From NCBI GenBank assembly GCA_038880555.1, contig JAVZRN010000002.1:223264-287263 (forward strand): DNA of 64,000 bases, read 5' to 3'. This document shows positions 15,666 to 36,185 of the stretch, in pieces (position 1 is the stretch's first letter; the number at the start of each line of letters is the position of its first letter). A model generated the notes under the pieces. It made no database searches and was not told where the DNA came from. It was given only the letters and a program-made list of their open reading frames with translations. Made by a program: the position numbers and the translations under genes. Source of the stretch: Candidatus Bathyarchaeia archaeon. GTDB taxonomy: Archaea; Thermoproteota; Bathyarchaeia; Bathyarchaeales; Bathycorpusculaceae.

Positions 15666-15669
15666 GCTT

Positions 15670-18048: not shown

Positions 18049-18065
18049 ACTAGAGGGGGCTAGTA

Positions 18066-20982: not shown

Positions 20983-21158
20983 GCTTTTACGCCGTCCTAA
21001 TGCCTATATTCTTAAACATGTCTCTTCAAAAATGTTTTGTTTCCATATTTGATAGGTGTTTCATAATTCGCTCCTTTTATCCGCCTGTTTAAAGGCTTAA
21101 TATAATCGTCCTTTTTGTTAAATGCTTTAATTTTAATGATTTTATTTAAATTAGGCTA

Positions 21159-21172
21159 AAATTTTGCCTTTT
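21159..21172. promoter_or_regulatory. 14-bp direct repeat aaattttgcctttt, copy 1
   Basis: Exact repeat in the AT-rich 250-bp gap upstream of the tail/connector genes. Copy 2 is at 21190..21203. Confidence 0.4.
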
Positions 21173-21189
21173 AAACGTGAAAATTGTTT

Positions 21190-21203
21190 AAATTTTGCCT
21201 TTT
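21190..21203. promoter_or_regulatory. 14-bp direct repeat aaattttgcctttt, copy 2
   Basis: Exact copy, 31 bp downstream of copy 1 and about 30 nt before the proposed TTG start at 21232. Confidence 0.4.
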
Positions 21204-21231
21204 TCCACCTTTAGGGTTGGAGGAACACTGC

Positions 21232-21585
21232 TTGGCAAACGTTTCCGTTGAGGATGTTCGGGATGTCTTAAACATAGGGGCTGCTGACATTCCAGACGAG
21301 AAAATTGTTAAGATGATTAAGAGGGCTGAAGTGGCTTTAGAGCTTGAGCTTGGAAAAGACATAGATTACGCGGACTGCACAGACGCTGAAAAAGAGGCTA
21401 TAACGCTTCTCGCAGCCATATATGCCATCTGCTATTTGACGGGCGGCTCGGCTGTTGGCTTAAACTTCACTCTAGGCGACGAAGGCATAAGCGTACTAAA
21501 CAATGCTCCGCCACTGAACGTTCTGCAAGGCGAGTTAGAGCGAATTTTAGCCGTTTTAAAGCAGCCCCATTTTGGGAGGGTTTAA
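21232..21585 (+). CDS. Head-tail connector (gp6-like) protein candidate
   Basis: The in-frame TTG lies 7 nt after GGAGGA. The sequence VSVEDVRDVLNIGAADIPDEKIVKMIKRAE...AEKEAITLLAAIYAICYL resembles phage DNA-packaging/connector proteins. Confidence 0.5.
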   Translation: MANVSVEDVRDVLNIGAADIPDEKIVKMIKRAEVALELELGKDIDYADCTDAEKEAITLLAAIYAICYLTGGSAVGLNFTLGDEGISVLNNAPPLNVLQGELERILAVLKQPHFGRV

Positions 21586-21590
21586 GCCTT

Positions 21591-22979
21591 TTGGGAAAAG
21601 TTCCAGAAGCCTATTACGCCTTTGTCATGGATTATGCACCCTACGTTTATGTTTTTCCGCCGGGCAATCCAGACCAGGAATGGGGGCGGGCAGCCTTTGC
21701 AGCAGCCTTCGCCATAGACTTCCTTTATGAGGCTTATTTCGCCAAACAGTTTAGCAACCGAAAAACAGTCATATACGAAAAGGTTGTTTCGCTGGCGGAT
21801 TGGATTTTAACCCAGCAGTGCACAGATCAGCAGAAAAAGGCTTATGGCGGATTTCAAAGTACAGAAAACAGCACTTATTATTATGCCATAGATGCTTGCC
21901 GTGTTATCCCATCGCTTCTTAAAGCCTATGAGTTGACTGGCAACGGCGACTACCTAAATGCTGCACGGTTGGCTGGAAACACTTTCCTTAGGGTTATGCA
22001 GGAAAAACAGCCTTATGGTGGTTTTGCAAGAGCCGTTGATATAAGCGATAATTGGCTTTTGCAGTTGGATGTTGAATGCCTTTATGGGCTTATTGGCTTA
22101 AAAATGTTGGCTGAAAAGTATGATGTGGCAAACGCTGGTCTATACCAAAACATGATGCACAAGGCTGCTGATTTCCTCCGCGAGGGCTTTGAAGGCTTAT
22201 GGCTTCACTATGACCCCTCTGATGGCAAGTGGCATCGTGTGGGCTTGGCGGAAAACGAGGTTTACGATGACTGTTTAGCCTATGGGCTTTTGGGCTTATA
22301 CGCCTATGAAGGCTGGAGCCCCTCATGCCAAAAAGTTTACAACTTTATTAACTCGATAGGGGCTTCTACGCAGTATCCAGCCTATAACTCGGCTATTTGT
22401 TGGGCTGGCTACATAGACGTTGTTTCGCGTTTTCCAGCATGCGACTACTATGATGGTGTTACCGCTGGTGTCTTGTGGAGCATCCGCAAGCACCATGACA
22501 AACCAAGCCTCGCCTACAGCGCTAAAATCATAGAAGGGCATGCTGAAAATTTCATGTTTTGGGGCGTTAAGCATGCGGATTACAGTCCAGTTGAAGAAAA
22601 GTGGGCTATGGCTACGGTTTGCTGGCTGGCGAGGCTGTTCCTTAACTATGAAGAGCCCTTAACACGTTTTACTCAGGTGCTTAGGGCTTATGGCAGATGG
22701 GTTACACTTTATCCGCTTGTGGCTGTTGGCGAATCGACAATCTACGGCGAGGGTATAGAAATCCAAGCCCTTATCAGTCCAGCTCGGGTTGACGAGGTTC
22801 TATTGGAGCCCGGCTACGTTATAAGCGACTATGTTACGGTTTGCACTTTTGCACCTATCCGTGTTCGGGATAAAATCCGAGTTGGGAGCGTTGACTACGA
22901 GGTTTTAAGTGTTCAAGCCTTCGATTGGCGGGGCGAAACCGCCTATTTTAGGGGCAGTTGTAGGAGGCTGAATGCATGA
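21591..22979 (+). CDS. Alpha/alpha-toroid-like repeat domain fused to a head-closure-like C-terminal domain
   Basis: There are repeated helix-hairpin units with QxxxxYGGF motifs (QQKKAYGGFQ, QEKQPYGGFA). The C-terminal roughly 90 aa (IRVRDKIRVGSVDYEVLSVQAFDWRGE) resemble head-tail joining proteins. Confidence 0.6.
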   Translation: MGKVPEAYYAFVMDYAPYVYVFPPGNPDQEWGRAAFAAAFAIDFLYEAYFAKQFSNRKTVIYEKVVSLADWILTQQCTDQQKKAYGGFQSTENSTYYYAIDACRVIPSLLKAYELTGNGDYLNAARLAGNTFLRVMQEKQPYGGFARAVDISDNWLLQLDVECLYGLIGLKMLAEKYDVANAGLYQNMMHKAADFLREGFEGLWLHYDPSDGKWHRVGLAENEVYDDCLAYGLLGLYAYEGWSPSCQKVYNFINSIGASTQYPAYNSAICWAGYIDVVSRFPACDYYDGVTAGVLWSIRKHHDKPSLAYSAKIIEGHAENFMFWGVKHADYSPVEEKWAMATVCWLARLFLNYEEPLTRFTQVLRAYGRWVTLYPLVAVGESTIYGEGIEIQALISPARVDEVLLEPGYVISDYVTVCTFAPIRVRDKIRVGSVDYEVLSVQAFDWRGETAYFRGSCRRLNA

Positions 22980-23416
22980 GTGATGCACAAAACCCCGTGG
23001 ACATTATCATTCAGTTGCTAGGCGAGAATATGCATGTGGCTAAAGAGGATGGAAGCCTAGCCAAAATCCAATTTAGCCGCGAATGGCTAAGCCAAGAGGC
23101 TTTACAAAGTGTTGATGGGCATGTGACCGTTGGCTTGGCAGAATGCCACGACACAAAACTTGAGTTAAGCGGCAAGCTCCGAAGACGCTTATACACGGTA
23201 CGCGTTAATGTTTGGAGCCGTGACAGGCTTATCCGCCAAAAAATGGTTGAAGAAGTCATGCGGGTTATCCGCGAAAACCGCAGCAATCCAGGAGGCTTTC
23301 TAGCCTATCTGGATGTGGTTAGTTACCGCGATTTGGACCGTGTGGATGTTAAGCCCTTCATCTACCGCACCGAGTTTGTCTTGAAGTCATGGGTATTCGA
23401 GGATATAGGAGTGTGA
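22976..23416 (+). CDS. Neck/tail-completion protein candidate
   Basis: ATGA overlap with the upstream gene, in the position between the connector and the tail tube. Confidence 0.45.
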   Translation: MSDAQNPVDIIIQLLGENMHVAKEDGSLAKIQFSREWLSQEALQSVDGHVTVGLAECHDTKLELSGKLRRRLYTVRVNVWSRDRLIRQKMVEEVMRVIRENRSNPGGFLAYLDVVSYRDLDRVDVKPFIYRTEFVLKSWVFEDIGV

Positions 23417-23423
23417 ATGCGGA

Positions 23424-24293
23424 ATGCCTGAAACCTATGGGGCGCATGAGTGCCGCGTCTACTATGTGCAGGAATCCACTTATGGGCAGACGCCAGCCAA
23501 CCCCTCAATGGTTGCCATTAACGCCGAAAACGTTGAGCCTTCGTTAAATCCAAGCCTCATTCAAGTGCGGGGTGTTGGCAGCAGAGATTTGGCGGCTCTG
23601 AAACGGGGAATGCTGAAACCAACTTTGAAGGTTAGCCACATACTGCCCAGCGACGCGCCTATAGGCTTTATTCAGCATGTGCAAACCCTAAACAGCCTAA
23701 GCATACAAGTGCTTTACTATAAGGGGTTGTTTGCCTCAGCCACAGACATCATAAGCCTATTATACAAGGGCATGCGGATAGACAAGCTTTCTGTGGAATG
23801 CGGCGTAGACGAGGTTGTTAAGGCAACTGTTGAGCTGATTGGACAAGACGTTACGGTTGGGACGGGCAAAATCACAGGCGCCACTTATGCGGACTATGCC
23901 GGAGCGGTTCCCTATCATCAAAGCTTTGTTCAACGTGGGACGGCAGACGGTTCAAACTTGTCGGCTGTTGAGCGGGTTACAGACTGGAAATTCGCTATTG
24001 AAAACAACCTTAAACCAGCGCCTGTCATCCGCACAACAAGCGGGCACCTGCTCAAATATCTACCAGCCCGCCACAGAGAATTAAGCGGCGAGTTAACCTT
24101 CGAGTTTGAAGACAAAGGCGAGTTTGAAGACGTTGTAAATGACAGCGAATTCAGCCTAAAATTCGGACTTGGCGGCTTAAACTATGCCCTTTTCAAATAC
24201 TGCAAATGGGAAAATGTTGCAACGCCAACACGCATAGAAGACTTAGTCAGCCTCAAAGCCCGCTTCATAGCAAGAGACGTGGTGATAACCTAA
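23424..24293 (+). CDS. Major tail (tube) protein candidate
   Basis: 289 aa, immediately upstream of the frameshifting chaperone gene pair, which is the canonical position. Confidence 0.6.
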   Translation: MPETYGAHECRVYYVQESTYGQTPANPSMVAINAENVEPSLNPSLIQVRGVGSRDLAALKRGMLKPTLKVSHILPSDAPIGFIQHVQTLNSLSIQVLYYKGLFASATDIISLLYKGMRIDKLSVECGVDEVVKATVELIGQDVTVGTGKITGATYADYAGAVPYHQSFVQRGTADGSNLSAVERVTDWKFAIENNLKPAPVIRTTSGHLLKYLPARHRELSGELTFEFEDKGEFEDVVNDSEFSLKFGLGGLNYALFKYCKWENVATPTRIEDLVSLKARFIARDVVIT

Positions 24294-24763
24294 TGCGAAC
24301 AGAAACAGTCACGATAGGCGAAGAATATGGCAAAGAGTATGCTGGCAAATACGTTTTTCAGGAGCTTACATGGGCGAAGCGCAGCCGAATAATCCAAAAA
24401 CACACAAAATATCATCCACTAACAGGGCATGTGGTTAGCAGCGACTACATAGCCATCCAAGCCGAAACAATAATGGCAAGTCTAAAAGAACAGCCGCAGC
24501 ACAAGCCCATAACCCTTGAAAAACTTTTAAGCGAAGACCCGGAGAGGGGCGTACCAATAGCCCTTGGCGAATTGTTCAGCCAAATCGTTAACCGCCTAAA
24601 CAATGTTGGCTTTGAAGAAGCTGCTTTTTTATCAGAGCCATCAGAAGCCAAAAGCCAAACCATGTGCTTACAGAGTTCCGCCTCTGCAAAGAGTTCGGCT
24701 GGACACCGCGGCAGCTCGCCCGACAACCAGCCAAAACCATCCAACAGTTCATCGTCATCCTAA
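24293..24763 (+). CDS. Tail assembly chaperone, 0-frame product (gpG-like)
   Basis: The start overlaps the tube gene stop (TAATG). After codon 113 the 0-frame becomes low-complexity S/P-rich sequence. Confidence 0.55.
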   Translation: MRTETVTIGEEYGKEYAGKYVFQELTWAKRSRIIQKHTKYHPLTGHVVSSDYIAIQAETIMASLKEQPQHKPITLEKLLSEDPERGVPIALGELFSQIVNRLNNVGFEEAAFLSEPSEAKSQTMCLQSSASAKSSAGHRGSSPDNQPKPSNSSSSS

Positions 24764-24834
24764 ACGAGCTGGACCGCCAAGCGGAAGAGGAAAAAGTCAA
24801 GATGGAGCGGGAAACCCATTGGCGGTTGAAGTAA
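24293..24834 (+). CDS. Tail assembly chaperone, -1 frameshift fusion product (gpGT-like; shift at 24625..24631)
   Basis: After T_TTT_TTA the -1 frame reads IRAIRSQKPNHVLTEFRLCKEFGWTPRQLARQPAKTIQQFIVILNELDRQAEEEKVKMERETHWRLK*. This is protein-like, unlike the 0-frame. Confidence 0.5.
24625..24631 (+). other. Slippery heptanucleotide T_TTT_TTA (candidate programmed -1 ribosomal frameshift site)
   Basis: It has the X_XXY_YYZ pattern in the 0-frame of the chaperone gene (gcT TTT TTA). Confidence 0.55.
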
Positions 24835-25184
24835 ACATCGAAGTGGATGCCGAAGAGGTCTTGCAAGCACTTCAAAGGTTGGATGAGGCTATGCTTAGGC
24901 AGGTTCGCGAACAGCTTGAGCGTTGGGCTACGGAGGTCCGCGAATACGCAAGAGCCCTAGCCCCAGCTAGGACGGGCTATTTGAGAGGCACAATTTACGC
25001 TAAAGTTCAGGGTTGGGTTGCCGAAATCGGCGCGGAAGCCTCCTACGCTATGTTCGTAGAGTTTGGCACCCACTACATGCAAGCTCGCCCCTACCTTAAC
25101 CCCGCCCTTCAAGAGTTTCTGCCAACCCTTGAACAAGTTATTCTTGAAGCCATTGACAAAGCCAAAGCGGAGGCTGAGCTATGA
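24819..25184 (+). CDS. HK97 gp10-like tail/neck component
   Basis: ARTGYLRGTIYAKV...ASYAMFVEFGTHYMQARPYLNPAL matches the hallmark of the HK97-gp10 family. I start it at the in-frame TTG 24819; the ORF-track N-terminus (24603) is out-of-frame read-through of the chaperone region. Confidence 0.65.
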   Translation: MAVEVNIEVDAEEVLQALQRLDEAMLRQVREQLERWATEVREYARALAPARTGYLRGTIYAKVQGWVAEIGAEASYAMFVEFGTHYMQARPYLNPALQEFLPTLEQVILEAIDKAKAEAEL

Positions 25185-25729
25185 GTTTCCGTGAAATAGC
25201 CATAACAGTTCGTGCCATAAACCGTGCAAGCCACGAGTTCGCCAGAATCCAGGCGGACACTGAAGCTTTAAGCGTGCGGATTAAAAGCCTCGGCGCCGCC
25301 ATGGCTGGTTTAGGCGCTGCCGGTTCAGCAGTTGTGCATTTAGCCCACCAATTCGGTTTGCTAAACAGTGAACAGACAAGAGCCCTGGCAAGCCTCACAT
25401 ACCTTGTCACCACAATTGGCATGTTTATGCGCTCTTCATGGGGCGTTGCCGTAGCCCAGAAAGTTTACGCTGCAGCCTGCTGGATAGCCAACGCCGCACA
25501 AAACGCCCTAAACATAAGCTTCGCCACATTCCTGGCTTTAACAGGAGTTGGAATAGCCGCCATTATTGGGGCTGCCGCGGCTGTTTCCTATTTCGCCAGT
25601 CAAATGCGCTCTGCAGCAGAATCCGTCAAAGAATACAACGAGGTTGCAGGTGGACTTTACTCCGGTTTTGCTGGGAGAAGCATCCGCCGTGCCGGCGAGG
25701 AGGAGCTTTACAGGCGAGGCGTAGAATAG
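25181..25729 (+). CDS. Short tape-measure-like protein (182 aa, hydrophobic core)
   Basis: ATGA overlap with the upstream gene. It has a coiled N-terminus followed by A/G-rich hydrophobic helices, and it sits after the chaperone and before the hub. Confidence 0.5.
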   Translation: MSFREIAITVRAINRASHEFARIQADTEALSVRIKSLGAAMAGLGAAGSAVVHLAHQFGLLNSEQTRALASLTYLVTTIGMFMRSSWGVAVAQKVYAAACWIANAAQNALNISFATFLALTGVGIAAIIGAAAAVSYFASQMRSAAESVKEYNEVAGGLYSGFAGRSIRRAGEEELYRRGVE

Positions 25730-25730
25730 C

Positions 25731-27350
25731 ATGAGCGTTGACAATCCAAAGATGGCGGTAGCCTTCGCGCAGTATGGCATACCCCAAGCCGACGTTATCG
25801 AGTGCCGCGTGCATTTGGGCTGCACAAAAGAGGTCAGCAGCTTCGAACTAACACTGCAGAACTGGGATGGCAAATACAGCCCAAACGGCTCTATCCCGCT
25901 GGCTGTCGGGATGGACGGCTCCATCTCCATTGGAAGAGGCTTTAACGTTCCACAGATAATCACCTGCCGCATTGAAAGCCTAAAATATGAATCCACGCCG
26001 GTGGAGCATTACCTGCGGGTTAGCGGGCGATGCTGGGGAGAACGCCTATTCAGACGCGTTTTTACAGGCACTTTTGAAAACATGAAAGGCGAAGACATAG
26101 TCAAGCATCTACTGGACTATTATGTGGGTTTAAGCCACACGCGGGACGGCACAGAGCTTGTTGAGGCAACGGACACAACCTATGTTAAGTTGAAATTTGA
26201 GAACACGCCAGTATTTGACATCATCCGCCAAATTGCGGATTCCGCTGACAAAAGCGGCGTTATAGGCTTTGATTTTCGCATAGCGCCAGACGGAAAGTTT
26301 GAGTTTTTCAGGCGGAACAGCAAAACTTCGCCAGTGAGCCTAACCGACCGCATTGAGTTTGCCGAGTACCGCCGAGACATCCACCGAATAAGAAACAAGA
26401 TTTACGTTTATGGAGCAGCTGAAAAGAAAACGCCCGCAGACGCCAACGAGGACAGCTGGACAGAAGCCACAAGCGGCTGGTATTCAAACGGCACAATAGC
26501 CACAGAATCAAACCATGTAAGCGAGGACGGACAGAAAAAGTACACCGACTCCCTTTGTGTTTACGCTTATGGCGATGGCACAACAAGCGAAATATGGCTT
26601 TACCGTGAAATTGGCGGATTAAAATTCAACGGTGCCAACGGCTTCAAGCAAATCAACACATGGCTTAACTGGACAAGATATGGCAGTGCACAGCCAACAT
26701 CAGCCAAATGCATCCTTTGGCAAACAGCCAACGACCGTTTTGAAATGGACATTAAGCCGCTATTACCGCCACAAGCCACTTGGGGCAAACTTGTGCTGCG
26801 CACGGACCAGCCTACGTGGGTGAATGTTGGCAACGCTGATTGGCAAAATCCAATAAACGCCATAGGCTTCTACATTATCCACGGTGAGGGCTGCATTCCC
26901 GTTCTCCGCTTAGACCACCTCCACTTTTCAGACTGCCGCTACAGTGCCATGCAAGAGGACGCCAACAGCCAGTCAGCCTACGGCCTAAGGGAGTTAACGA
27001 AAACGGATGAGGAGTTGAAAAGCGACAACGAGTGCCATTTAAGGGCTAAAGCATTGCTCAACTATTACAAGGATCCAGCTGAACACTTAACCATAAAAAG
27101 CACAGTCATAGACTATGGCAATACGCCAATTCTCCCCGGCGATAGAATCTACGTTTCTTTGCCCAACGAAGGCTTAAGCGGCTACTTCCGCATTGAAAGC
27201 GTGGAATACCACATGGACGCCAAAACGCAGACTTTAGAAATAACCCTTGAGCTTGGAAGGGAAACCCCGCTTTTAGCCGACTACCTATACGCTTTAAGAA
27301 GCAAAACAGACCATTTAAGCCGCTGTAAGGCGGGTGTTGCGAGGGTTTAA
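25731..27350 (+). CDS. Distal tail/baseplate hub protein candidate
   Basis: 539 aa, directly after the tape measure. The N-terminal part is reminiscent of gpD/gp27-type hub proteins (context-based call). Confidence 0.5.
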   Translation: MSVDNPKMAVAFAQYGIPQADVIECRVHLGCTKEVSSFELTLQNWDGKYSPNGSIPLAVGMDGSISIGRGFNVPQIITCRIESLKYESTPVEHYLRVSGRCWGERLFRRVFTGTFENMKGEDIVKHLLDYYVGLSHTRDGTELVEATDTTYVKLKFENTPVFDIIRQIADSADKSGVIGFDFRIAPDGKFEFFRRNSKTSPVSLTDRIEFAEYRRDIHRIRNKIYVYGAAEKKTPADANEDSWTEATSGWYSNGTIATESNHVSEDGQKKYTDSLCVYAYGDGTTSEIWLYREIGGLKFNGANGFKQINTWLNWTRYGSAQPTSAKCILWQTANDRFEMDIKPLLPPQATWGKLVLRTDQPTWVNVGNADWQNPINAIGFYIIHGEGCIPVLRLDHLHFSDCRYSAMQEDANSQSAYGLRELTKTDEELKSDNECHLRAKALLNYYKDPAEHLTIKSTVIDYGNTPILPGDRIYVSLPNEGLSGYFRIESVEYHMDAKTQTLEITLELGRETPLLADYLYALRSKTDHLSRCKAGVARV

Positions 27351-27353
27351 TGT

Positions 27354-27548
27354 TTGTCAAGGGATTTTAGGCGGACAGTTATAGAGGTTCGCGAGGACCT
27401 GCACCATGAAGTTCGGAAGCTGGCACTGCTTAACGATTTGCGCATCTATCAGCTTGCCAACGCCATTATTGAGGATTACCTTAAAGATGGTGAGCGGGTG
27501 AAAGCCCTAATAAAAAGGCTTAGGCTTCAGCTTCAGCCTCAGCCTTGA
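27354..27548 (+). CDS. Small RHH-like protein
   Basis: RRTVIEVREDLHHEVRKLALLNDLRIYQLANAIIEDYL shows the strand-helix-helix pattern. Its 3' end overlaps the convergent aldolase gene by 29 nt. Confidence 0.45.
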   Translation: MSRDFRRTVIEVREDLHHEVRKLALLNDLRIYQLANAIIEDYLKDGERVKALIKRLRLQLQPQP

Positions 27549-28428
27549 CAGCTTCCAAGAGTTTTCTAATTTCGGCTTTTTCAGCTTCATCCAAGGGTAA
27601 GGCTGGCAATCGCGGATAGCCTGCAGGCAATCCAAGCATTCGCATTGCCTCTTTTATGGCTGAAAGCTGGTTGAAGCGTTTGACCAGCACTTCGTTTATG
27701 CGGGTTATTTTCTTTTGAAGTTTTGCCGCTTTTTCAACGTCGCCTTCCATGTAGGCTTTGTATAGGCTTGCACAAAGCCTTGGATAAGCGTTGGCTACGG
27801 CTATGACGGCGCCTTTTCCACCCAACATAAGTGTCGGCAGCACAACATCGGCTGTTCCAGCCAAAACGGCTATTTTTTCACCCACTAGGCGTATGGTTTC
27901 TGTTATTGTGGCTATGTTTCCACCGCTGTCTTTTACGCCCACAACATGCGAGTATTCTTTGGCGAGCTCTGCAATTACGGCTGGTTCTAAAGCGTAGCCA
28001 GTAAACTTCGGGACACTGTAAAGGATTATGGGCAAGTCCACAGCCTCCAAAACGGCTTTGTAGTGGGCTGTTAACTCGCGGTTTGAAAGCCTAAAATAGT
28101 AGGGCGTAACCACCACCGCGGCGTCAACGCCCAAGTCTTCGGCGTCTCTTGTAAGCCTTATGGTTTCCCAAGTGCTTGGCGCGCCTGTTCCAGCCACAAC
28201 CGTCACGCCACTTTTAGCCTCTTCTAGGACTGCGGCGATTATTTTTTGGCGTTCCTCCCTAGCCAAATATGGGGCTTCGCCATTACTGCCACAAGGCATA
28301 AGCCCATCAACGCCGCCTTCAACCCAGAACCGCACACATTTGCGCAAGGCTTCAAAGTCTATTTCTCCCTTCTTCGTGAAAGGCGTAATATGCGGCACAA
28401 TTATGCCTTCAAGCCTTGTTTTCTTCAT
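27520..28428 (-). CDS. DapA/NAL-family class I aldolase (dihydrodipicolinate synthase-like)
   Basis: GLMPCGSNGE, TPYYF, YSVPKFTG and the Schiff-base lysine context GVKDSGG. Confidence 0.8.
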   Translation of the reverse strand: MKKTRLEGIIVPHITPFTKKGEIDFEALRKCVRFWVEGGVDGLMPCGSNGEAPYLAREERQKIIAAVLEEAKSGVTVVAGTGAPSTWETIRLTRDAEDLGVDAAVVVTPYYFRLSNRELTAHYKAVLEAVDLPIILYSVPKFTGYALEPAVIAELAKEYSHVVGVKDSGGNIATITETIRLVGEKIAVLAGTADVVLPTLMLGGKGAVIAVANAYPRLCASLYKAYMEGDVEKAAKLQKKITRINEVLVKRFNQLSAIKEAMRMLGLPAGYPRLPALPLDEAEKAEIRKLLEAVKAEAEAEA

Positions 28429-28603
28429 GTTTATGCTCCCTTCTCTTGGTGAAGGTTAGGATTTGTTTTCTGCGCTTATAAAATATGAGCATTTGCCGCT
28501 TGCTAAAAACAGATAAGCATGTTGAGGCTAACAGTTTTTGGTGGCTGTTTGGCGGTTTTGGGTTGGCGTAGGTTGAAGCCAGAGGGTGAATTTGGCTGTT
28601 GAC

Positions 28604-28882
28604 ATGAGCGATGAGGCGCTTATCGAACTTGTTAGAGAGCGCCTAATGTATGAGAAGAATTCGCGAAGGGAAGCTGTGAGGAAACGCATTGTTGAGGCGC
28701 CCAAAACATTGGAGGCTAATCCGGAAAAGGCTGGAAAACGCCTAAAGCCATCGGATTTCTGGAGCTTAAGGGTAAGCGATTACAGAGCCATATATGAAAT
28801 AGACAAAGCCAACACCAAAGTAATCGTCTTGTTTGTTGGGCATAGAAGCAAAGTCTACGAAGACCTAACAAAAATGCTTTAG
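28604..28882 (+). CDS. relE: RelE/ParE-superfamily toxin (no cognate antitoxin seen)
   Basis: The C-terminal signature is FWSLRVSDYRAIYEIDKANTKVIVLFVGHRSKVY. Confidence 0.65.
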   Translation: MSDEALIELVRERLMYEKNSRREAVRKRIVEAPKTLEANPEKAGKRLKPSDFWSLRVSDYRAIYEIDKANTKVIVLFVGHRSKVYEDLTKML

Positions 28883-29006
28883 ACATTTTCCTCTCTTAGC
28901 TTGTCGAGTAGACGCTTCATCTCTTTTGGGGCTGCGTGTTTCGCTCTTGAAACCGCCAAGTCTATGGTGGATTTTGGCTTAAGTTTCGCTTAGTGTCTTT
29001 TTTCCT

Positions 29007-29435
29007 TCATGGAGTTTCGCCTATCCATATGGTTTGGTTTAAGCCCTTAAAGTGTTGGTCTCCTGTTATGAGTTTTGCGTTTAGGGTTTTCGCTGTTGCT
29101 AGTATTATGGCGTCGAAGAGGCTTGGCGCTTTTAAGCCTTCTTTTTTGGCTTTTTCTGTTAGTTGGATGTAGCATTTGGCGGATTCTATGGCTGTTTGTG
29201 GGTTTATTGGGGTTATTTCTGTGGTTTCTTCTATGGTTTTCAGGCGTTGTTGGATGGTGTTTTCTTTTGCGCCTTCGCGCATGTATTTACGGGCTATTTC
29301 TGCTAGAACAATGTCTGGGGTGTAGGCATCCTCGGCTTCTCGGATGGTTTTCATGGCTTTTTCGCCTCGGCTGCTGCCTATGAAGATTTCAATCCAAGCG
29401 TAGGAGTCAACAACTACTGCCGCTGTTGCCGCCAT
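29007..29435 (-). CDS. vapC: PIN-domain toxin VapC
   Basis: VVVDSYAWIEIF (first acidic residue), DIVLAEI, LFDAIILATA, ITGDQHF. I start it at the internal ATG 29435. Confidence 0.8.
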   Translation of the reverse strand: MAATAAVVVDSYAWIEIFIGSSRGEKAMKTIREAEDAYTPDIVLAEIARKYMREGAKENTIQQRLKTIEETTEITPINPQTAIESAKCYIQLTEKAKKEGLKAPSLFDAIILATAKTLNAKLITGDQHFKGLNQTIWIGETP

Positions 29436-29634
29436 TTTCACCGCGGTCTTCCTCCGTGAAAGGCTTAATCTTGCCCTTGTCAATGCCGAAGACTTCGCTT
29501 AGGCGTTGTCTGCGTTGCTGGACGATGAAAAGCCTAATGGTTTCGTCTAGGGTTTGGACTCCAAGTTTTTGGCGTAGCTTCTCAAGCATCTTAAGTGTGG
29601 ACTTTGAAACCCTAATAGTTGTTGTTTCAACCAT
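29407..29634 (-). CDS. vapB: VapB-type antitoxin
   Basis: MVETTTIRVSKSTLKMLEKL is an N-terminal DNA-binding strand/helix. It overlaps the vapC start by 29 nt. Confidence 0.6.
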   Translation of the reverse strand: MVETTTIRVSKSTLKMLEKLRQKLGVQTLDETIRLFIVQQRRQRLSEVFGIDKGKIKPFTEEDRGENGGNSGSSC

Positions 29635-29959
29635 ACAGCTTCACATATACAAGTATACAATATACAAGCATATAAGCATACTGTAACAAATTTTGAAAAC
29701 GTCTTAAGCAACACATTTTAGGCTGGCGTTTCAGCTATGGCTTTTGGCCGGCGTTCCATATCTCTATGCCCATGATTTCGCCCTTTTCATCAAGTTCCAA
29801 ATGGATGTCTGGATCAGCCTCCATCACTTCGTGACTTGGTCCCTCTTTGTTGTACGTGCTTTCACTTTACCCTAAACCACTGCGCTCTTACCTTGCACTC
29901 TCATAATATCTTAACTTATAAATAACCTACACCAAATACAATTTAGAGTAGTGAAGTTG

Positions 29960-30814
29960 ATGAATGACCAGGAAGTTCAGGCAGCCATTAAGAAAAAGGA
30001 GAAGTTGAACGAGTTAGATGGGAAAACTTGGGAGAGATATTCTATTAGCATATGGGATATTGTAAAGTCAAGGGAAGAAGTTAAACTCAAACATCCAGCT
30101 ATGTTTCCTGTGGAATTATGTCGAAGACTGATTGAGATATATACTAAAAAAGGTGATGTGGTTTTAGACCCCTTTATGGGTAGTGGTAGTGCAATAGTTG
30201 CTGCTAGAGACTTGGAACGGAAGGGAATTGGTTTTGATATCAACCCAGATTTTGTGAAGCTTGCAAAAAAGAGGATATCTCAACAGAAGCTTATACGCCT
30301 TGGTGTTGAAGATCCTGATATTTATTGTGAGGACGCCAAAAACCTATTGATGTATGTAAAACCTAACTCTGTGGATTTAGTAATAACTTCTCCCCCCTAC
30401 TGGAACATTCATACAAGAAAGAGGACAGCAGACTATAAGGAACCAAGACCATATTCGTCTTTAGAAAGGGATCTCGGGAACATCTCAGATTTCAATAAGT
30501 TTATGGAGGAATTGAAGTCTATTTTTGAAAAAGTTTATGCTGTTTTAAAAAACGGTAAACGATGTATCGTTATTGTTATGGATATTCGTCAAGGTTCTCA
30601 GTTCATTCCGTTTCATATGTGCGTAGCAAATATGATGGCGGAGATAGGTTTTCTTCTTGAAGATATAATAATTTGGGATAGACGTAAAGAGTACAGTAAC
30701 TTGCGACCATTGGGCTATCCGTATGTTTTCATTGTGAATAAAGTTCATGAATACATCTTAATATTCAGGAAGAATAGGGTTGAAGAAATTGAAGTCGAAG
30801 AAGACCTCGCTTGA
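29960..30814 (+). CDS. N4-cytosine/N6-adenine DNA methyltransferase with permuted motif order (AdoMet motif I before motif IV)
   Basis: HPAMFPVEL...VLDPFMGSGS (motifs X/I) is at residues ~50-80 and VITSPPYW (motif IV, SPPY type) at ~residue 145. Confidence 0.85.
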   Translation: MNDQEVQAAIKKKEKLNELDGKTWERYSISIWDIVKSREEVKLKHPAMFPVELCRRLIEIYTKKGDVVLDPFMGSGSAIVAARDLERKGIGFDINPDFVKLAKKRISQQKLIRLGVEDPDIYCEDAKNLLMYVKPNSVDLVITSPPYWNIHTRKRTADYKEPRPYSSLERDLGNISDFNKFMEELKSIFEKVYAVLKNGKRCIVIVMDIRQGSQFIPFHMCVANMMAEIGFLLEDIIIWDRRKEYSNLRPLGYPYVFIVNKVHEYILIFRKNRVEEIEVEEDLA

Positions 30815-31760
30815 CTATATCGATGAAGATGTGGCTTATTTTATTGGATTAATAACCGCTAGGGGCGAAATATCTGATCAAGGAGGAGTAAAGCGAATTT
30901 CCATAGAATTTCCCTTTAGGAATTTAGAGGTTGAAGGCGTAAAGAAGAAGATAACACAAAAAGATAAGATATTGTTAAGCTTGGACAGAACCATAAATAG
31001 GGTTAATGAACTTGCAGATGTTAACGTTAGAAAAACCGAGAGCGAACATTCGGTCTATCTTGTACTCGAAACATTAAAAAATACCATGTTTTTGCGAAAT
31101 ATCAGAATGCTTATGAAAGGTAGAAGCTCTTACTACGAGTTCGAGATTCCCGACCAAATTTTTGAGTCAAGCGATTCTATTAAAAAGGAATTTATCCGTG
31201 GATTTGCCGATGTTGCTGGATCTGCCAGGTGGGCGAACAGAAATAGGTGGGGAAAATGTAGGGTTTATCTGGATGTCCTTAACAGTCCATCCAATTGGCG
31301 TTTGCCGGTTCAAATTTGTCATCTTTTGCAAGATCATTTGGGAATTCCTGTAGATGTTATTCAGTGGGGTCATCCTAATACTAGAGACCCAAGCTTAAGG
31401 GAATATAAGGCTGGACGGAAGGATGCTTGGGCGAGAGAGCACCAAATAAAAATTTTTGCAGATGATTTTGAGAAAATAGGTTTCTATATGTCCCATAAAC
31501 AAGAAATACTTGAAGAACTTGCAGAATACAATAAGACGAAGGGGTTTGCAAAGGCAAACTTTTGCAATCCGCCAAAAAGAAGAAAAACTAAACCGAAGCA
31601 TCCTGCTGAAAATTCTGAGAAACTACCTTTAGAAATTCGTGGAAAGCATTACGACTCTTATTGGCAGATTTGCGCGGATTTGGGTTGCGTAAGATACGCA
31701 AATTTCGTTAAAAGACATAAACGACTGACCAAATGGATAGAATCTAAAAAGAAGAAGTGA
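30780..31760 (+). CDS. Double-motif LAGLIDADG-fold protein with both catalytic acidic residues substituted
   Basis: Motif 1 is YFIGLITARGE (position 8 = R). Motif 2 is FIRGFADVAGS (position 8 = A), with the typical LLQDHLGIPV helix after it. The TTG start overlaps the methyltransferase by 35 nt. Confidence 0.6.
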   Translation: MKKLKSKKTSLDYIDEDVAYFIGLITARGEISDQGGVKRISIEFPFRNLEVEGVKKKITQKDKILLSLDRTINRVNELADVNVRKTESEHSVYLVLETLKNTMFLRNIRMLMKGRSSYYEFEIPDQIFESSDSIKKEFIRGFADVAGSARWANRNRWGKCRVYLDVLNSPSNWRLPVQICHLLQDHLGIPVDVIQWGHPNTRDPSLREYKAGRKDAWAREHQIKIFADDFEKIGFYMSHKQEILEELAEYNKTKGFAKANFCNPPKRRKTKPKHPAENSEKLPLEIRGKHYDSYWQICADLGCVRYANFVKRHKRLTKWIESKKKK

Positions 31761-31788
31761 AAAGGAATTGTATAAGAAAGAGAAAGAA

Positions 31789-32265
31789 ATGTATCCTGAT
31801 GTCTGTTTGTGGTTCAAGAAAACGTTGCAAAGTAAGTTTAAAAATGCTAGAATATGTGTCGAAGATACTTCTAAAAAGGTTCTCTCAAAATGGCTTCTTG
31901 AGAAAGGTTTTCATGTATACTTTCCTGATCACCAAACGTATGAGATTGAAGTTGATGTAACCGGGGTTATTGTAAAATCAGACAAAGAAGCGCATTTGGG
32001 ACTTATTGAATGTAAGCTCGGTAGAATAAACCTACGGGATTTTTCCCAATTGTTAGGATACAGCAAGGTTGCCTTACCATTGTATTCTATAATACTTTCA
32101 CCAAAAGGAGTCTCAAATTCAATAAATCTTCTTTTTAATGTTGCCAGAAGGAATGATATACTTTACTATTCGCGCGATAGGCATATCTTTATTGCTCAAT
32201 GGGACGAACGGAAAAAGGAAATAGATTTCTCAACTATAATTCCCAAAGGCGTTCGTATCCCTTAA
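31789..32265 (+). CDS. Small PD-(D/E)XK-fold nuclease candidate
   Basis: YEIEVDVTGVIV...x...LGLIECKLG gives D...ExK at the expected spacing. It begins 8-29 nt after the LAGLIDADG gene; the alternative start is TTG 31768. Confidence 0.55.
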   Translation: MYPDVCLWFKKTLQSKFKNARICVEDTSKKVLSKWLLEKGFHVYFPDHQTYEIEVDVTGVIVKSDKEAHLGLIECKLGRINLRDFSQLLGYSKVALPLYSIILSPKGVSNSINLLFNVARRNDILYYSRDRHIFIAQWDERKKEIDFSTIIPKGVRIP

Positions 32266-32344
32266 GTTTATGAATTGGTAAATTTCTGAATTTTGCCTCT
32301 CCTTATATTCAATCCTTGCCTTGTGTTTTGTTTGATGGTGGTGT

Positions 32345-32734
32345 ATGAGGGAGGTTGTTAGGCGGGTTAAGGAGTTAAGCCTTGGCGATTTGGTTCGTGT
32401 TGAGTGGTTTGACGCTAGTATTGGCAAGAGTCTTAGTGGCGGTTTGAATGGTATTGATGTTCCGGTGGTTAGTTGGGGCGTGTTCTTGGGTGTTTTGGGC
32501 TCTAAGAACCGGCATGTTATCTTGGCGCAGAACTGTTTTCGTTATGCTGATGGCTTCTATGACATTGATTATACGGCTGTGCCTTTGGCTTGGGCGTGCA
32601 ACGCCACGGTAATTGCCAAGGCGCATGTTCCGTCTGAAGAGGCTAAACAGCTCTTGAACAGTTTTCTTGTGGGCGGCAAACGCGCCTCAATAAAGGGCAA
32701 AAAACACCAACAGAGGGTTAAAAACCATGGATGA
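32345..32734 (+). CDS. Hypothetical protein (G+T-rich coding strand)
   Basis: The 129-aa ORF has plausible hydrophobic periodicity. However, the low A content here inflates chance ORFs. Confidence 0.4.
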   Translation: MREVVRRVKELSLGDLVRVEWFDASIGKSLSGGLNGIDVPVVSWGVFLGVLGSKNRHVILAQNCFRYADGFYDIDYTAVPLAWACNATVIAKAHVPSEEAKQLLNSFLVGGKRASIKGKKHQQRVKNHG

Positions 32735-32972: not shown

Positions 32973-33371
32973 TTGCAGTCCTTCGAGCCTAGCAAAATTG
33001 ACACCGCGAAGCCTTCCCGCACAGCCATGTTGAAGAGACGAGTGGCAGAACTAAAAGAGGAGGTGAAAACAGATACCCAGAAAATCAGACTGAAGACCAT
33101 GAAACAACTCGAAGAACTCTTCAACATGGCTTCAGAAATGGCGAAAGGAGAAATCCAATACCAAACAGAAAACGGCAAACCACAAAGAATAACCATCAGC
33201 CAAAGGCAAAGATGGGCACGCGTAGCCGCCTACATAGCCCAAATAATAAACGGCGTAGCCACCCACTTCGACGAACACCAAATAGATGAAGACCTAGCAA
33301 AACTCGAGAGGCTCATAGATGAAGCCAAGACAAAAACAAAAACTCCGCCAACTGGAACAAGCGCTGGCTGA
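32973..33371 (+). CDS. Coiled-coil hypothetical protein (small-terminase position)
   Basis: The TTG follows GAGGGGG. It is charged and helical and overlaps the terminase start by 53 nt. Position is the only argument. Confidence 0.4.
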   Translation: MQSFEPSKIDTAKPSRTAMLKRRVAELKEEVKTDTQKIRLKTMKQLEELFNMASEMAKGEIQYQTENGKPQRITISQRQRWARVAAYIAQIINGVATHFDEHQIDEDLAKLERLIDEAKTKTKTPPTGTSAG

Positions 33372-34683
33372 AGCCCTAACGCCGCCCATCCCCGCCGACC
33401 CAGTAGAGTTTTGCACTCAAATATTGGGCTTCCAGCCAACCCAGTACCAAACAGACCTAATCCGCAAGTTCCAAACCAGCCAATTCACAGCCGCCAGATG
33501 GTGCCGCCAAAGCGGAAAAACCCAAACAGTATCCGCCTTATTGCTACACTACGCACTAACAAACCCAAACACACGCATAGGCATAGTTGGACCAAGCTGG
33601 CGCCAAACAAAACACGTTATTAGACGGATAAACACGCTCCTAAAAAGGCTCCCAAAAGGCTTATACGAAAAACCCCAGCAGACGGCGGTACGCCTAAAAA
33701 ACGGAAGCATAATAGAGGCTTATCCGAACAATCCAGAAACAATCCGCGGACCAACATTGCATATCGTCTACGCAGACGAATTCAATTTTATACCAAACGA
33801 CAAAGACTTGTATGACGCCATACTATTCACGCTTAGCGCAACAAACGGAAAATTCATATGCACCAGCACACCATGGCACACAGACAGCATTTTCTGGCGG
33901 ATCTGGCACGACCCAGCCTACAACGACTACACCAAAAGCCACGTAACCCACCAACAAGCCACAGAACCCAACGGACCACTAAAACGCGAAATCCTACAAA
34001 AAATTAGGAGGCAACTGGAAAACGACCAGTGGCGATGGCAACGCGAAATGATGGCAGAATGGGCAGAAGACCAAAACACATGGCTAACCCAATCATTAAT
34101 AGTAGCCTGCATAGACCCAACCCTAGAATACACAGCCTACAACAAACCCGCCCAAGGACGATTCTACGCAGGACTAGACCTAGGCAAACACCAAGACCCC
34201 AGCGTATTGGCGGTACTAAACCAAGAACAAGACAACACCCTAAGGCTAGTGCACATGCACAGATTCCCACTAAAAACGCCATACGCCACAGTAATAGGCT
34301 ATACAAAAACCCTATGCGAAAAATGGCAAACAGTCCAAAAACTCCTAGTGGACATGACAGGAGTAGGCGAATACATAGTAGAAGACATGAAAAACACAGG
34401 CATGAACACCCAAATAGAAGGCGTAAAATTCACCCAAGAAACAAAAGAGCAACTTGCCAACAACCTAAAACAACTCATGACTGAAAAGCGCCTAAAAATC
34501 CCCTACGACCCAGAACTAATAGCAGAACTAAACACAGAACGCTACCAACTAACAAAAGAAGGCAAAATACGCCTAACCCGCCCAGAAGGCACCCACGACG
34601 ACCGCTTCTGGAGCCTAGCACTCGCGGCATACGCAGCAAAAACCCAACCGCCAACACCAGCCCTATGGATAGTGCCAAAATGA
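33319..34683 (+). CDS. Terminase large subunit (ATPase + RNase-H-like nuclease)
   Basis: Walker A CRQSGKTQ and Walker B LHIVYADEF. The nuclease acidic residues are in GLDLGKHQDPSVLAV, VDMTGVGEYIVED and THDDRFWSLALA. Confidence 0.8.
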   Translation: MKPRQKQKLRQLEQALAEALTPPIPADPVEFCTQILGFQPTQYQTDLIRKFQTSQFTAARWCRQSGKTQTVSALLLHYALTNPNTRIGIVGPSWRQTKHVIRRINTLLKRLPKGLYEKPQQTAVRLKNGSIIEAYPNNPETIRGPTLHIVYADEFNFIPNDKDLYDAILFTLSATNGKFICTSTPWHTDSIFWRIWHDPAYNDYTKSHVTHQQATEPNGPLKREILQKIRRQLENDQWRWQREMMAEWAEDQNTWLTQSLIVACIDPTLEYTAYNKPAQGRFYAGLDLGKHQDPSVLAVLNQEQDNTLRLVHMHRFPLKTPYATVIGYTKTLCEKWQTVQKLLVDMTGVGEYIVEDMKNTGMNTQIEGVKFTQETKEQLANNLKQLMTEKRLKIPYDPELIAELNTERYQLTKEGKIRLTRPEGTHDDRFWSLALAAYAAKTQPPTPALWIVPK

Positions 34684-36185
34684 AACGCCAAAGCGAAACC
34701 TTCCAAATCAAAAGCATAAAACGCCGCTACGACCACGCAACAGGCAAATTCATAATAAACATAGCCTACAAAACAGCCCCACCAAAACCAACAAAAAGAG
34801 TTTTAGGCGTAGCAGAAGCCTTTGGGCTCGGCTTAGACCAAACAACAAAATTCACAATATACGAAAACGCAGAAATAAAAATCGGCGTTGGCGACATCGT
34901 CTACATAACAGGCGAAAGCGGCTCAGGAAAAAGCATCCTCCTAAAAGCCCTAGAAAAAGACATCCGAAAATACACGCCCCACACATGCATAAACATTAAG
35001 CAAATAAAACCCCCGCCCAACAAGCCAATAATAGAAACGGTGGGCAAAACCTTCCAACAAGCCCTAGAACTCCTAAGCCTAGTAGGCTTAAACGATGCCT
35101 TCCTTTTCCTCCGCACCTATCGGCAACTCAGCGAAGGACAAAAATACCGATACAAAATCGCCAAACTAATAGAAAGCCAAGCCCAATTCTGGATACTAGA
35201 CGAATTCGCAGCAACCCTAGACCGTGACACAGCAAAAATAGTGGCATACAACCTCCAAAAAACCGCAAGACGCATGGGCAAAACAGTCATAGCCGCCACA
35301 ACTCACACAGACCTCCACGAAGACCTAAACCCCTCAATCCACATCCATAAACGCTACGGAAAAGAAATAACAGTCAAATATCACCCAAACACGCCAACCA
35401 AAGAATGCAGCCTAACACGAGAAATACGCATAGAACAAGGTACAAAAGCCGACTACAAAGCGTTAAGCCAATTCCACTATCGTTCAAGCCATCTGCCGCC
35501 GCCGAGAAAAACCTTCACCATGAAACGCGGAGAAGAAACATGCGGAGTAATCGTCTACAGCTACCCACCACCAACAATGTTCGGAAGAAGCCAAATCTGG
35601 AAAGGTAACCACCAACAACTCCAAAAAGAAATTAGCACAATAACCCGAGTAATAATCCAACCAAAATACCGCGCAATAGGCCTAGGAACAAAACTCGTAA
35701 AAGAAACACTTCCATTAGCCGGAACACCCTACGTGGAAACATTAGCCGTCATGGCAAAATACAACCCCTTCTTCGAAAAGGCCGGAATGCGAAAGATAGC
35801 CGAAAGCAAGCCCAGCCCCCACCTGCAAAAAGCCATGGAAAAGTTGGAAGCCCTAGGATTCAAGCCATACATGCTCCAAAGCCAAAAATACAACATAGAA
35901 AAGCTAAACGAGGTCGGCAAAACCGAAGTTATAAAAATACTAACCGAACTTTCAGAGAAAGGCGCCATCCCCAGAAAAAGAATCATATCCACAAGCGAAG
36001 CCTACCCAAGCCACAAAGAATTCAAAGAAAAAATAGAAAAGCTAAACAGTGAAGGGCTAGCAAAAGCGCTGAAAAAGCTAAGCTTCCTAACACAGACAAA
36101 AGTTTACCTTTTCTGGGCTAAAGACTGGCTTAACGCCGGGAAGCAGCCCAATCTTGGCGTAAAACCTTCTCCACATAAAACTTAG
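34680..36185 (+). CDS. ABC-type ATPase fused to a GNAT acetyltransferase-like domain
   Basis: Walker A GESGSGKS, signature LSEGQKYR, Walker B FWILDEF, H-loop ATTHTD, then a GNAT motif-A-like segment VIIQPKYRAIGLGTKLV. ATGA overlap with the terminase stop. Confidence 0.75.
   Translation: MKRQSETFQIKSIKRRYDHATGKFIINIAYKTAPPKPTKRVLGVAEAFGLGLDQTTKFTIYENAEIKIGVGDIVYITGESGSGKSILLKALEKDIRKYTPHTCINIKQIKPPPNKPIIETVGKTFQQALELLSLVGLNDAFLFLRTYRQLSEGQKYRYKIAKLIESQAQFWILDEFAATLDRDTAKIVAYNLQKTARRMGKTVIAATTHTDLHEDLNPSIHIHKRYGKEITVKYHPNTPTKECSLTREIRIEQGTKADYKALSQFHYRSSHLPPPRKTFTMKRGEETCGVIVYSYPPPTMFGRSQIWKGNHQQLQKEISTITRVIIQPKYRAIGLGTKLVKETLPLAGTPYVETLAVMAKYNPFFEKAGMRKIAESKPSPHLQKAMEKLEALGFKPYMLQSQKYNIEKLNEVGKTEVIKILTELSEKGAIPRKRIISTSEAYPSHKEFKEKIEKLNSEGLAKALKKLSFLTQTKVYLFWAKDWLNAGKQPNLGVKPSPHKT

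Follow-up and report, generated by a model that had tools for sequence, protein, structure and literature searches.

What a protein with the fold of a homing endonuclease does between a DNA methyltransferase and a small nuclease is the question raised by a three-gene cassette of a Candidatus Bathyarchaeia archaeon (GenBank assembly GCA_038880555.1, contig JAVZRN010000002.1, positions 223,264–287,263 of the forward strand; this stretch of 64,000 nucleotides (nt), analyzed at its full length, is referred to as the window). The genes, denoted g1, g2 and g3, encode a DNA amino-methyltransferase, a predicted LAGLIDADG-fold protein and a predicted PD-(D/E)XK nuclease, respectively. In all likelihood the locus is a restriction-modification (R-M) module. 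The reading favored here, with a probability of about 0.6, is that of an R-M system whose nuclease would be a heteromer of a domesticated LAGLIDADG scaffold with a dead canonical site and a small PD-(D/E)XK nuclease, g2 reading the DNA and g3 cutting it.

Organization of the Cassette

The cassette and its main features are the following:
29913–32276, forward strand: the mobile cassette in full, with its three genes and the promoter region, delimited by the lowest G+C (GC) content and by shared borders of nucleotide similarity
29916–29924, forward strand: TTATAAATA, archaeal TATA-box-like element about 30 nt 5' of the g1 start, read from the sequence
29951–30814, forward strand: g1, DNA amino-methyltransferase of 287 amino acids (aa), with an alternative in-frame ATG at 29960
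30780–31760, forward strand: g2, predicted double-domain LAGLIDADG-fold protein of 326 aa
31768–32265, forward strand: g3, predicted PD-(D/E)XK nuclease of 165 aa from a TTG start, or 158 aa if the ATG at 31789 is used

The three genes are co-oriented and tightly coupled. The positions of the open reading frames (ORFs) confirm the overlap of 35 nt between g1 and g2 described in an initial annotation of this DNA; the gap between g2 and g3, given there as 8–29 nt, is indeed short, although both figures were off by one, the distance being 7 nt from the TTG or 28 nt from the ATG at 31789, which is where g3 starts in many homologues. The putative promoter of g1, TTATAAATA, falls within a block that is conserved with the cassettes of other genomes.

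The GC content of 29913–32276 is 0.368, compared with 0.449 for the whole window and 0.486 and 0.459 for the left and right 5-kb flanks of the cassette, which is the lowest-GC segment of 2.36 kb in the 64-kb window (only 0.02% of 2364-nt windows are as low). The initial annotation had described the segment as richer in AT than its surroundings from hand counts of 22/60 G+C (30001–30060) and 27/60 (27001–27060); both counts reproduce exactly and the contrast is much stronger than they imply. Nucleotide similarity to contigs from Caldarchaeum, Nitrososphaerales and other Bathyarchaeia (loci L003–L006 and L009 of the census described below) begins at about 29913–30008 and ends at about 32249–32276, the flanks being unrelated. 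Terminal repeats around the cassette were not found and transposon-like borders were rejected, as 29600–32500 contains only short chance repeats.

The LAGLIDADG-Fold Protein and its Canonical Site

All of the 776 homologues of g2 are named hypothetical. The protein has no match in NCBIfam, PADLOC or PHROG, nor in Pfam at E ≤ 0.1, the LAGLIDADG_1, LAGLIDADG_2, LAGLIDADG_3 and Hom_end families included, and comparison with PDB sequences, using either the single sequence or a profile, returned noise only. Because the PDB sequence searches with g2 and g3 gave nothing but noise (e.g., DOCK10, topoisomerase I, and internalin), the fold assignments of both proteins rest on structure prediction.

The AlphaFold2 model of g2, based on a 55-sequence alignment, has a mean predicted local distance difference test score (pLDDT) of 91.7 and a predicted template modeling score (pTM) of 0.89. 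According to DSSP, the order of elements is helix 16–28, two strands, helix 61–78, two strands and helix 103–111 in domain 1, and helix 132–146, two strands, helix 175–186, a strand and, further on, strand 221–226 and helix 238–253 in domain 2. The top 50 Foldseek matches in the PDB are all LAGLIDADG homing endonucleases or WhiA (E 1e-6 to 9e-4), the best being the TliVMA intein endonuclease (1e-6) followed by I-DmoI, I-SceI, I-AniI, PI-SceI, E-DreI, and WhiA; matches in BFVD are intein-borne or free-standing LAGLIDADG enzymes. On the strength of the model, g2 is assigned a LAGLIDADG fold of two domains, in agreement with the initial annotation.

The helices that would form the domain interface are located as follows:
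30825–30863, forward strand: LAGLIDADG helix 1 of g2, residues 16–28 by DSSP of the model, ending in R28; G29 follows, with a strand from residue 29
31173–31217, forward strand: LAGLIDADG helix 2 of g2, residues 132–146 of the model (...EFIRGFADVA), ending in A146

The corresponding motifs, YFIGLITARG (residues 20–29) and FIRGFADVAG (residues 138–147), end in R28-G29 and A146-G147, where in active LAGLIDADG enzymes a Gly comes after the Asp or Glu that binds the metal (I-DmoI residues D21 and E117; PMC3384342). The initial annotation had pointed out the replacement of both position-8 acids, by R and by A, and this feature extends to the family. In an alignment of 72 full-length homologues from the genome census, the most distant with about 30% identity, position 28 is R in 40, N in 22 and K in 10, followed by an invariant glycine (G29, 72/72), and position 146 is T in 45, A in 22 and S in 5; neither D nor E occurs at these positions in any of the 72. 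Judged by this alignment, the canonical two-acid site is missing across the g2 family, as it is in WhiA, whose equivalent positions are Arg and Gly in the Thermotoga protein and which does not cut DNA (PMC3384342). Homologues with catalytic acids (0/72) or occurring as ordinary homing endonucleases (80 loci free of introns and inteins) were thus not encountered. The description of g2 as catalytically dead holds for the canonical site, but a cluster of invariant polar residues in domain 2 could form another active site (see below).

The Nuclease and Methyltransferase Partners

Two motifs of g3 are conserved among its homologues:
31954–32016, forward strand: predicted catalytic motif D63 ... E81-C-K83
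32047–32061, forward strand: QxxxY motif, Q94-L-L-G-Y98

Searches with g3 recovered 146 homologues from the single query and 561 from a profile; a repeat search with the g3 alignment yielded no further diversity, its top 120 proteins being those already found. The AlphaFold2 model (pLDDT 92.1) displays an alpha-beta-beta-beta-alpha-beta core (by DSSP, helix 5–23 and strands 28–33, 64–69 and 75–82, then helix 89–102 and strand 106–111), with D63 opening beta2 and E81-x-K83 lying within beta3. Almost all Foldseek matches are PD-(D/E)XK nucleases, with NucS as the best (2vld; E 5e-3, probability 0.99) followed by MspJI, EcoRI, AF1548, BamHI, EndoMS, and PaqCI, and further matches to EcoT38I and MUS81. 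Over the region of the nuclease core g3 also gives a weak, sub-threshold match to the NucS model of NCBIfam (E 0.015; 14 bits versus a cut-off of 216 bits), the sole hint from sequence profiles. PADLOC recognizes neither g2 nor g3.

The signature residues lie in the peptides EVDVTG (residues 61–66) and IECK (residues 80–83). In free copies of g3, D63 is present in 76/76 and E81 and K83 in 67/76 each, the exceptions being second, degenerate paralogues, and all three residues occur in each of the eight g3-like domains that are fused to g2. The archaeal set has Q94 and Y98 throughout (Q 67/76 and Y 76/76 in the wide set), a pair which we take to be the QxxxY motif of RecB/NucS-type nucleases. The model places g3 in the PD-(D/E)XK fold, and the minimal D...ExK nuclease proposed initially agrees with both this fold and the conservation of D63, E81, K83, and QxxxY.

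The product of g1 matches the Pfam family N6_N4_Mtase (PF01555) with E 5.8e-41 in two separate stretches, residues 5–107 aligning to the C-terminal half of the family, which makes the order a permuted one with respect to the model. Accordingly, FMGSG of motif I (residue 75) precedes SPPY of motif IV (residues 147–150). This permutation is that of a known class, because the Type II methyltransferase models of PADLOC (MTase_II, up to E 5e-53) include some that match collinearly. With PF01555, FxGxG, and (S/D)PPY, g1 shows the features of N4/N6 amino-methyltransferases, and the permuted SPPY enzyme recognized by the initial annotation, whose quoted peptide motifs are all present in the three proteins, is well founded. 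SPPY, found in 49/49 of the g1-type homologues of the census, is the motif associated with N4-cytosine methylation, and g1 is probably specific for N4-cytosine.

Gene Neighborhoods

The initial annotation had suggested a census of gene neighborhoods. It was carried out on 80 loci (numbered with the prefix L) in contigs taken from one genome per species, which cover Bathyarchaeia, Caldarchaeum, Nitrososphaerales, Asgard archaea, Nanoarchaeota, Woesearchaeota, Thermococci, and Methanosarcinales among archaea and more than 15 bacterial phyla, including Omnitrophota, Planctomycetota, Bacteroidota, Bacillota, Chloroflexota, Armatimonadota, and Patescibacteria. A g3 gene lies directly 3' of g2 on the same strand in 76/80 loci, the remainder being mostly at contig edges, and where the contig leaves space for one (76 loci), a DNA methyltransferase adjoins in 73; two of the three others (L047 and L058) have a fragmented g2. 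No intron, intein or homing-target insertion context of g2 was found in the 80 loci. The arrangement g1-g2-g3 is more than a chance association, since each gene has many homologues and the order is conserved elsewhere.

The methyltransferases themselves vary. Labels assigned by jackhmmer, which bleed between Rossmann methyltransferase families, were used for presence or absence only, and family names rest on Pfam scans. A g1-type SPPY enzyme occurs alone in an archaeal thermophile clade that includes the window. Other loci have Dam-like D12 and SPPY methyltransferases, separate or fused to about 613 aa (Flavobacteriia); C5 and N6 (Eco57I-like) enzymes, separate or fused to about 907 aa (Lachnospiraceae, Bacteroidales); or EcoRI-like and C5 enzymes, separate or fused to about 700 aa. 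The conserved core is thus g2 plus g3, and the family of the methyltransferase, often represented by two enzymes, is swapped between lineages. A nuclease core that stays constant while the methyltransferases are exchanged is the hallmark of R-M systems. Enzymes with asymmetric sites typically have two methyltransferases (PMC4081073), a pairing that would suit an asymmetric, monomeric LAGLIDADG reader.

In many loci the methyltransferases are separated from g2 by a protein with a NOV_C domain (Pfam PF13020), a possible additional subunit that is absent from the cassette of the window. Examples are:
L056, 2837–3877: NOV_C-domain protein
L059, 4926–5999: NOV_C-domain protein
L026, 4942–5391: small version of the NOV_C-domain protein

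At eight loci a single protein of about 540 aa combines g2 with a g3-like domain, and a free g3 follows:
L038, 3052–5174 (fusion gene at 3052–4677), and L044, L045, L053, L055, L066, L075, L080: fusion architecture, with the methyltransferases on the opposite strand

This Rosetta-stone fusion argues that g2 and g3 act together. The fused copy keeps D...ExK and the free g3 beside it has lost ExK (N-R-S and similar), which suggests a dimeric g3 that needs only one active site. A single sufficient site would favor either sequential cutting or a second catalytic site elsewhere, in g2 or in the NOV_C-domain protein.

Three further arrangements were observed. Locus L032 (5491–7362, Terriglobia) has the order g3-g2-g3 with a catalytically degenerate upstream g3; no recognizable methyltransferase adjoins, and the 389-aa ORF upstream has no Pfam match. 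Five long proteins (P0284, P0285, P0286, P0288, and P0326; about 1000–1300 aa) carry a C-terminal g2 module behind a shared N-terminal region of 700–1000 aa, in which neither a Pfam match nor, with the g3 profile, a g3-like domain was found. In L042 (763–4131) such a protein is followed by an SPPY-type methyltransferase with no g3, possibly representing the system in single-chain form.

These architectures bear on the proposal that restriction is the work of g3 alone and that g2 is a transcriptional regulator of the WhiA or C-protein type. WhiA is indeed a precedent for a LAGLIDADG fold that lost its acids and became a regulator, and many R-M systems carry a controller gene. However, with 326 aa g2 is far larger and more conserved than controller proteins and shows no helix-turn-helix (HTH) match, its in-frame fusion to a D...ExK domain in eight loci is unexpected for a regulator, and so are the g2-module proteins of about 1000 aa that lack a nearby g3 and yet, in L042, retain a methyltransferase. 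In addition, the 165 aa of g3 leave little room outside the nuclease core for sequence reading. A regulatory g2 is for these reasons considered improbable.

Proposed Mechanism

The locus shows features of a Type II R-M system, namely an adjoining methyltransferase, an intact nuclease motif in g3 and a patchy, mobile distribution. In the heteromeric system proposed here, g1 would methylate host DNA, probably as N4-methylcytosine, and g2 and g3 would jointly supply the restriction activity. The two-domain, monomeric g2 would bind its target, probably an asymmetric one, through the beta-sheet saddle, much of the specificity being carried by the variable first domain, and would position g3, which, probably dimeric when on g2, would hydrolyze the DNA. 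The initial annotation had proposed a division of labor of this kind, and none of the four findings that it named as refuting was made. That g2 binds DNA and forms a complex with g3, that g3 cleaves, that unmethylated DNA is restricted and that the two proteins divide the labor in this way is what we infer from the models, the alignments and the neighborhoods.

The distribution of variability in g2 is compatible with such roles. The sheet of domain 1 is the most variable part of the protein (mean column entropy 1.75–2.82 bits) and the sheet plus loop of domain 2 the most conserved (0.87–1.77 bits; 0.87–1.28 bits for residues 196–226). The variable saddle of domain 1 may be read as the specificity surface, and the conserved domain 2 as either the docking site for g3 or a non-canonical active site. 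Two regions deserve particular attention:
31365–31457, forward strand: residues 196–226 of g2, WGHPNxRD ... WA[RK]EHQxK, the most conserved stretch of the alignment
31563–31688, forward strand: C-terminal extension of g2 (residues 262–303), with the putative zinc site C262/H274/C298/C303 taken from the alignments

Positions identical in at least 95% of the 72 homologues are Y20, G23, G29, F138, G141, D144, R161, N172, W173, I194, G197, H198, P199, N200, R202, E220, H221, Q222, K240, H274, E277, P283, and H290. G197, H198, P199, N200, R202, E220, and H221 are found in 72/72 and Q222 in 71/72; D144, which occupies position 6 of the motif, is also invariant (72/72) and probably structural. Residues 196–226 cover the long beta3'-beta4' loop and a strand of domain 2, and are a candidate for a non-canonical active site or a g3-docking surface. 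An HNH or PD-(D/E)XK reading of GHPNxRD...EHQxK was set aside because the predicted strand/long loop/strand arrangement resembles neither the beta-beta-alpha-Me finger nor the PD-(D/E)XK core.

In the C-terminal extension C262, H274, C298, and C303 are invariant among archaeal-type g2 and could bind zinc. In the wide set of 72 proteins residue 262 is C in 38 and Y in 31, residue 274 is H in 71, residue 298 is C in 40 and A in 29, and residue 303 is C in 40 and Y in 31; the set is thus kept in about half of the family and elsewhere reads Y/H/A/Y, with H274, E277, and H290 near-invariant throughout.

Several observations weigh against the division of labor proposed above. The cluster of invariant polar and His residues of g2 (D144, R161, H198, N200, R202, E220, H221, Q222, K240, H274, E277, H290) is maintained despite the differing methyltransferases, and to judge from its conservation looks more like a catalytic center or a fixed interface than like a sequence-reading surface. 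Where two g3 paralogues occur one has no ExK, so that cleavage of the second strand is unexplained if g2 is inert. The system of the window and its close archaeal relatives have one methyltransferase and not two, as most bacterial members of the family do. The Foldseek E-values of g3 are weak (5e-3 at best). Lastly, the LAGLIDADG domain of WhiA may not be its main DNA reader (PMC3384342).

Part of this evidence would be accommodated by the same R-M system with an active g2, in which the invariant residues of domain 2 and the C-terminal region (H198, N200, E220, H221, Q222, H274, E277, H290) form a new site; g2 would then cut one strand and g3 the other of an asymmetric site, as a Type IIT enzyme with two unrelated catalytic centers. 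Such a role would fit a cluster that is invariant in 72 homologues with different methyltransferases and presumably, in consequence, different specificities, as well as the far stronger conservation of domain 2 relative to domain 1. It would also fit the duplicated-g3 systems, which keep only one PD-(D/E)XK site, as they would if cleavage of the other strand took place elsewhere, and it has a precedent in BtsI, BsrDI, and BspD6I, whose large subunit nicks one strand while the small one cuts the other. However, the cluster matches no known nuclease motif or fold and has no match in Pfam, NCBIfam or PDB sequences, and it could equally be the surface on which g3 docks. Moreover NOV_C, possibly a nuclease domain, could provide the second site in the many loci that encode it. 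An active g2 is accordingly regarded as unlikely, though well short of negligible and the strongest of the alternatives, and a g2 that reads the DNA for g3 to cut is preferred.

Mobility and Genomic Setting

The cassette is horizontally mobile, as indicated by the low-GC island, the sharp borders of homology across archaeal orders and the presence of the family on plasmids and phages. The 6495-bp Lactiplantibacillus plantarum plasmid NZ_CP060181.1 (locus L081) carries the triad, with a fused EcoRI-like/C5 methyltransferase, g2 and g3, along with rep and a YafQ toxin pair, and an 8.8-kb plasmid of the same species (NZ_CP141333.1) also has a g2 homologue. Both plasmids are small, non-mobilizable and derived from fermented foods, and offer a convenient cultured system. 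Other cultured carriers are Bizionia sediminis KCTC 42587, Calidifontibacillus oryziterrae ZYK and Butyrivibrio sp. X503, and L. plantarum P9 is a plasmid host. The triad was also found in two gut Caudoviricetes genomes; in one of them, a temperate phage, it adjoins an excisionase.

In the window the cassette is surrounded by genes of tailed viruses (12000–27350 and 33319–34683) and appears, from this gene content, to ride in a provirus or virus of the Bathyarchaeia archaeon:
14056–15126: major head protein
23424–24293: minor tail protein
25731–27350: tail protein
33319–34683: large terminase

Such a setting is relevant to the proposal that g2 and g3 are not a classical R-M nuclease but a homing or mobility nuclease of the cassette, or a modification-dependent or abortive defence that travels with methyltransferases. 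The LAGLIDADG ancestry, the precise borders of the mobile cassette, the provirus-like region and the adjoining toxin-antitoxin genes are in line with it. Against it stand the 80 loci, none of which has an intron, intein or target-gene insertion context, the adjoining methyltransferases (73/76) whose family swapping fits cognate protection, the lack of terminal repeats around the cassette and the PADLOC search, which gave nothing for g2 or g3. This is the least probable of the explanations considered, and restriction by g2 and g3 together with protection by the adjoining methyltransferase is retained.

Other features of the surroundings are listed below:
27520–28428, reverse strand: dihydrodipicolinate synthase family gene (Pfam E 2e-83) between the tail and toxin genes, an odd spot for a metabolic gene
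28586–28882, forward strand: ParE-family toxin, just upstream of the cassette
29007–29483, reverse strand: PIN-domain protein, with a small overlapping upstream ORF at 29407–29634, reverse strand
33001–36000: AT skew of +0.46 to +0.51 and negative GC skew over the terminase and the next gene, unlike the rest of the window
34665–36185: 506-aa protein with an ABC-type ATPase and a weak, below-cutoff signal of a GNAT acetyltransferase

The toxin block (28586–29634) is missing from the otherwise syntenic locus L002.

Prior Knowledge and Significance

The family is previously unannotated: homologues of g2 and g3 in NCBI, UniRef and IMG, in PGAP-annotated plasmids and in phage records are all named "hypothetical protein." An exhaustive profile search of 1.84 billion representatives places its size at 387 clusters at 50% identity.

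The folds of restriction enzymes listed in the reviews and classifications consulted are PD-(D/E)XK, HNH, GIY-YIG, phospholipase D (PLD), and half-pipe. Neither the 2008 fold classification of Type II enzymes nor the Type II review of 2014 mentions LAGLIDADG, in line with the view of the initial annotation that it is not an established fold class among restriction systems, and full-text literature searches returned no paper tying a LAGLIDADG protein to an R-M operon.

If the proposed reading is correct, LAGLIDADG would be a sixth restriction-enzyme scaffold, and a homing-endonuclease fold would have been recruited into host restriction, in a second domestication beside that of WhiA. The case of g2 would mirror that of I-Ssp6803I, a homing endonuclease with the PD-(D/E)XK fold of restriction enzymes. 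It would also represent a natural LAGLIDADG DNA reader that no longer cuts by itself and works with a detachable nuclease, an architecture that protein engineers build artificially. The family is compact and diverse, thermostable in its archaeal members and associated with several methyltransferase partners, and could supply new specificities and nicking enzymes. Finally, a function would be assigned to hundreds of "hypothetical proteins" of gut Firmicutes and Bacteroidota, of plasmids of food lactobacilli and of phages.

Comparison with Known Systems

The closest structural matches to g2 are the monomeric LAGLIDADG homing endonucleases (I-DmoI, I-SceI, I-AniI, PI-SceI/TliVMA). Unlike these, g2 has both acids replaced and no Pfam LAGLIDADG match, is found without intron or intein in 80 loci and linked to g3 and methyltransferases, and possesses an extra long conserved loop (196–220) and a C-terminal extension rich in His and Cys. 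WhiA/DUF199 (Foldseek matches 3hyj and 8dy9) resembles g2 in that the LAGLIDADG scaffold is kept with the acids replaced (Arg/Gly versus Arg/Ala in g2). In contrast to WhiA, g2 shows no match to a C-terminal HTH (Pfam, NCBIfam), occurs in R-M cassettes and not in a whi operon, is fused to a nuclease in some lineages and has a patchy, horizontal distribution, whereas WhiA is vertically inherited in Gram-positives.

For g3, the nearest relative in structure is the C-terminal domain of NucS/EndoMS, the best match being 2vld, with which it shares the D...ExK...QxxxY set. This similarity is below family thresholds, and g3 differs from NucS as a stand-alone protein of 165 aa with no N-terminal DNA-binding domain and in an R-M rather than a mismatch-repair context.

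Among restriction enzymes BslI, a two-subunit (alpha2beta2), zinc-containing and thermostable enzyme, was set aside because the glucocorticoid-receptor-like Cys4 zinc motifs of its alpha subunit (PMC4081073) are absent from g2, in which one C/H/C/C set occurs, kept by about half of the family; this comparison was made with the description of BslI only.

Enzymes of Type IIT or class III Type IIS (BtsI, BsrDI, BspD6I/BstNBI) are similar to the system in several respects. Adjacent genes encode a large and a small subunit (37.6 and 18.6 kDa in BtsI, about the sizes expected for g2, with 326 aa, and g3, with 165 aa); the small subunit of BtsI, BsrDI, and BspD6I is a PD-(D/E)XK nuclease, as predicted for g3, and is active only in the complex; and these enzymes usually have two methyltransferases, separate or fused, like most members of the g2-g3 family. 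However, BtsI-type large subunits also belong to the PD-(D/E)XK nucleases, that of BtsI to the BsmI family, and their recognition domains are like those of FokI or BsmI; moreover, the system of the window has one methyltransferase. Membership of g2 in the BtsI/BsrDI group was rejected on the basis of its predicted LAGLIDADG fold, the absence of BsmI from its top 50 structural matches, although BsmI structures are present in the PDB library, and the lack of sequence likeness, no BsmI-family sequence being found by the g2 and g3 profiles at E ≤ 10. The likeness of the g2-g3 system to heteromeric Type IIT/IIS enzymes is therefore a functional one, and the distinctive trait would be the use of a domesticated homing-endonuclease scaffold as the recognition subunit.

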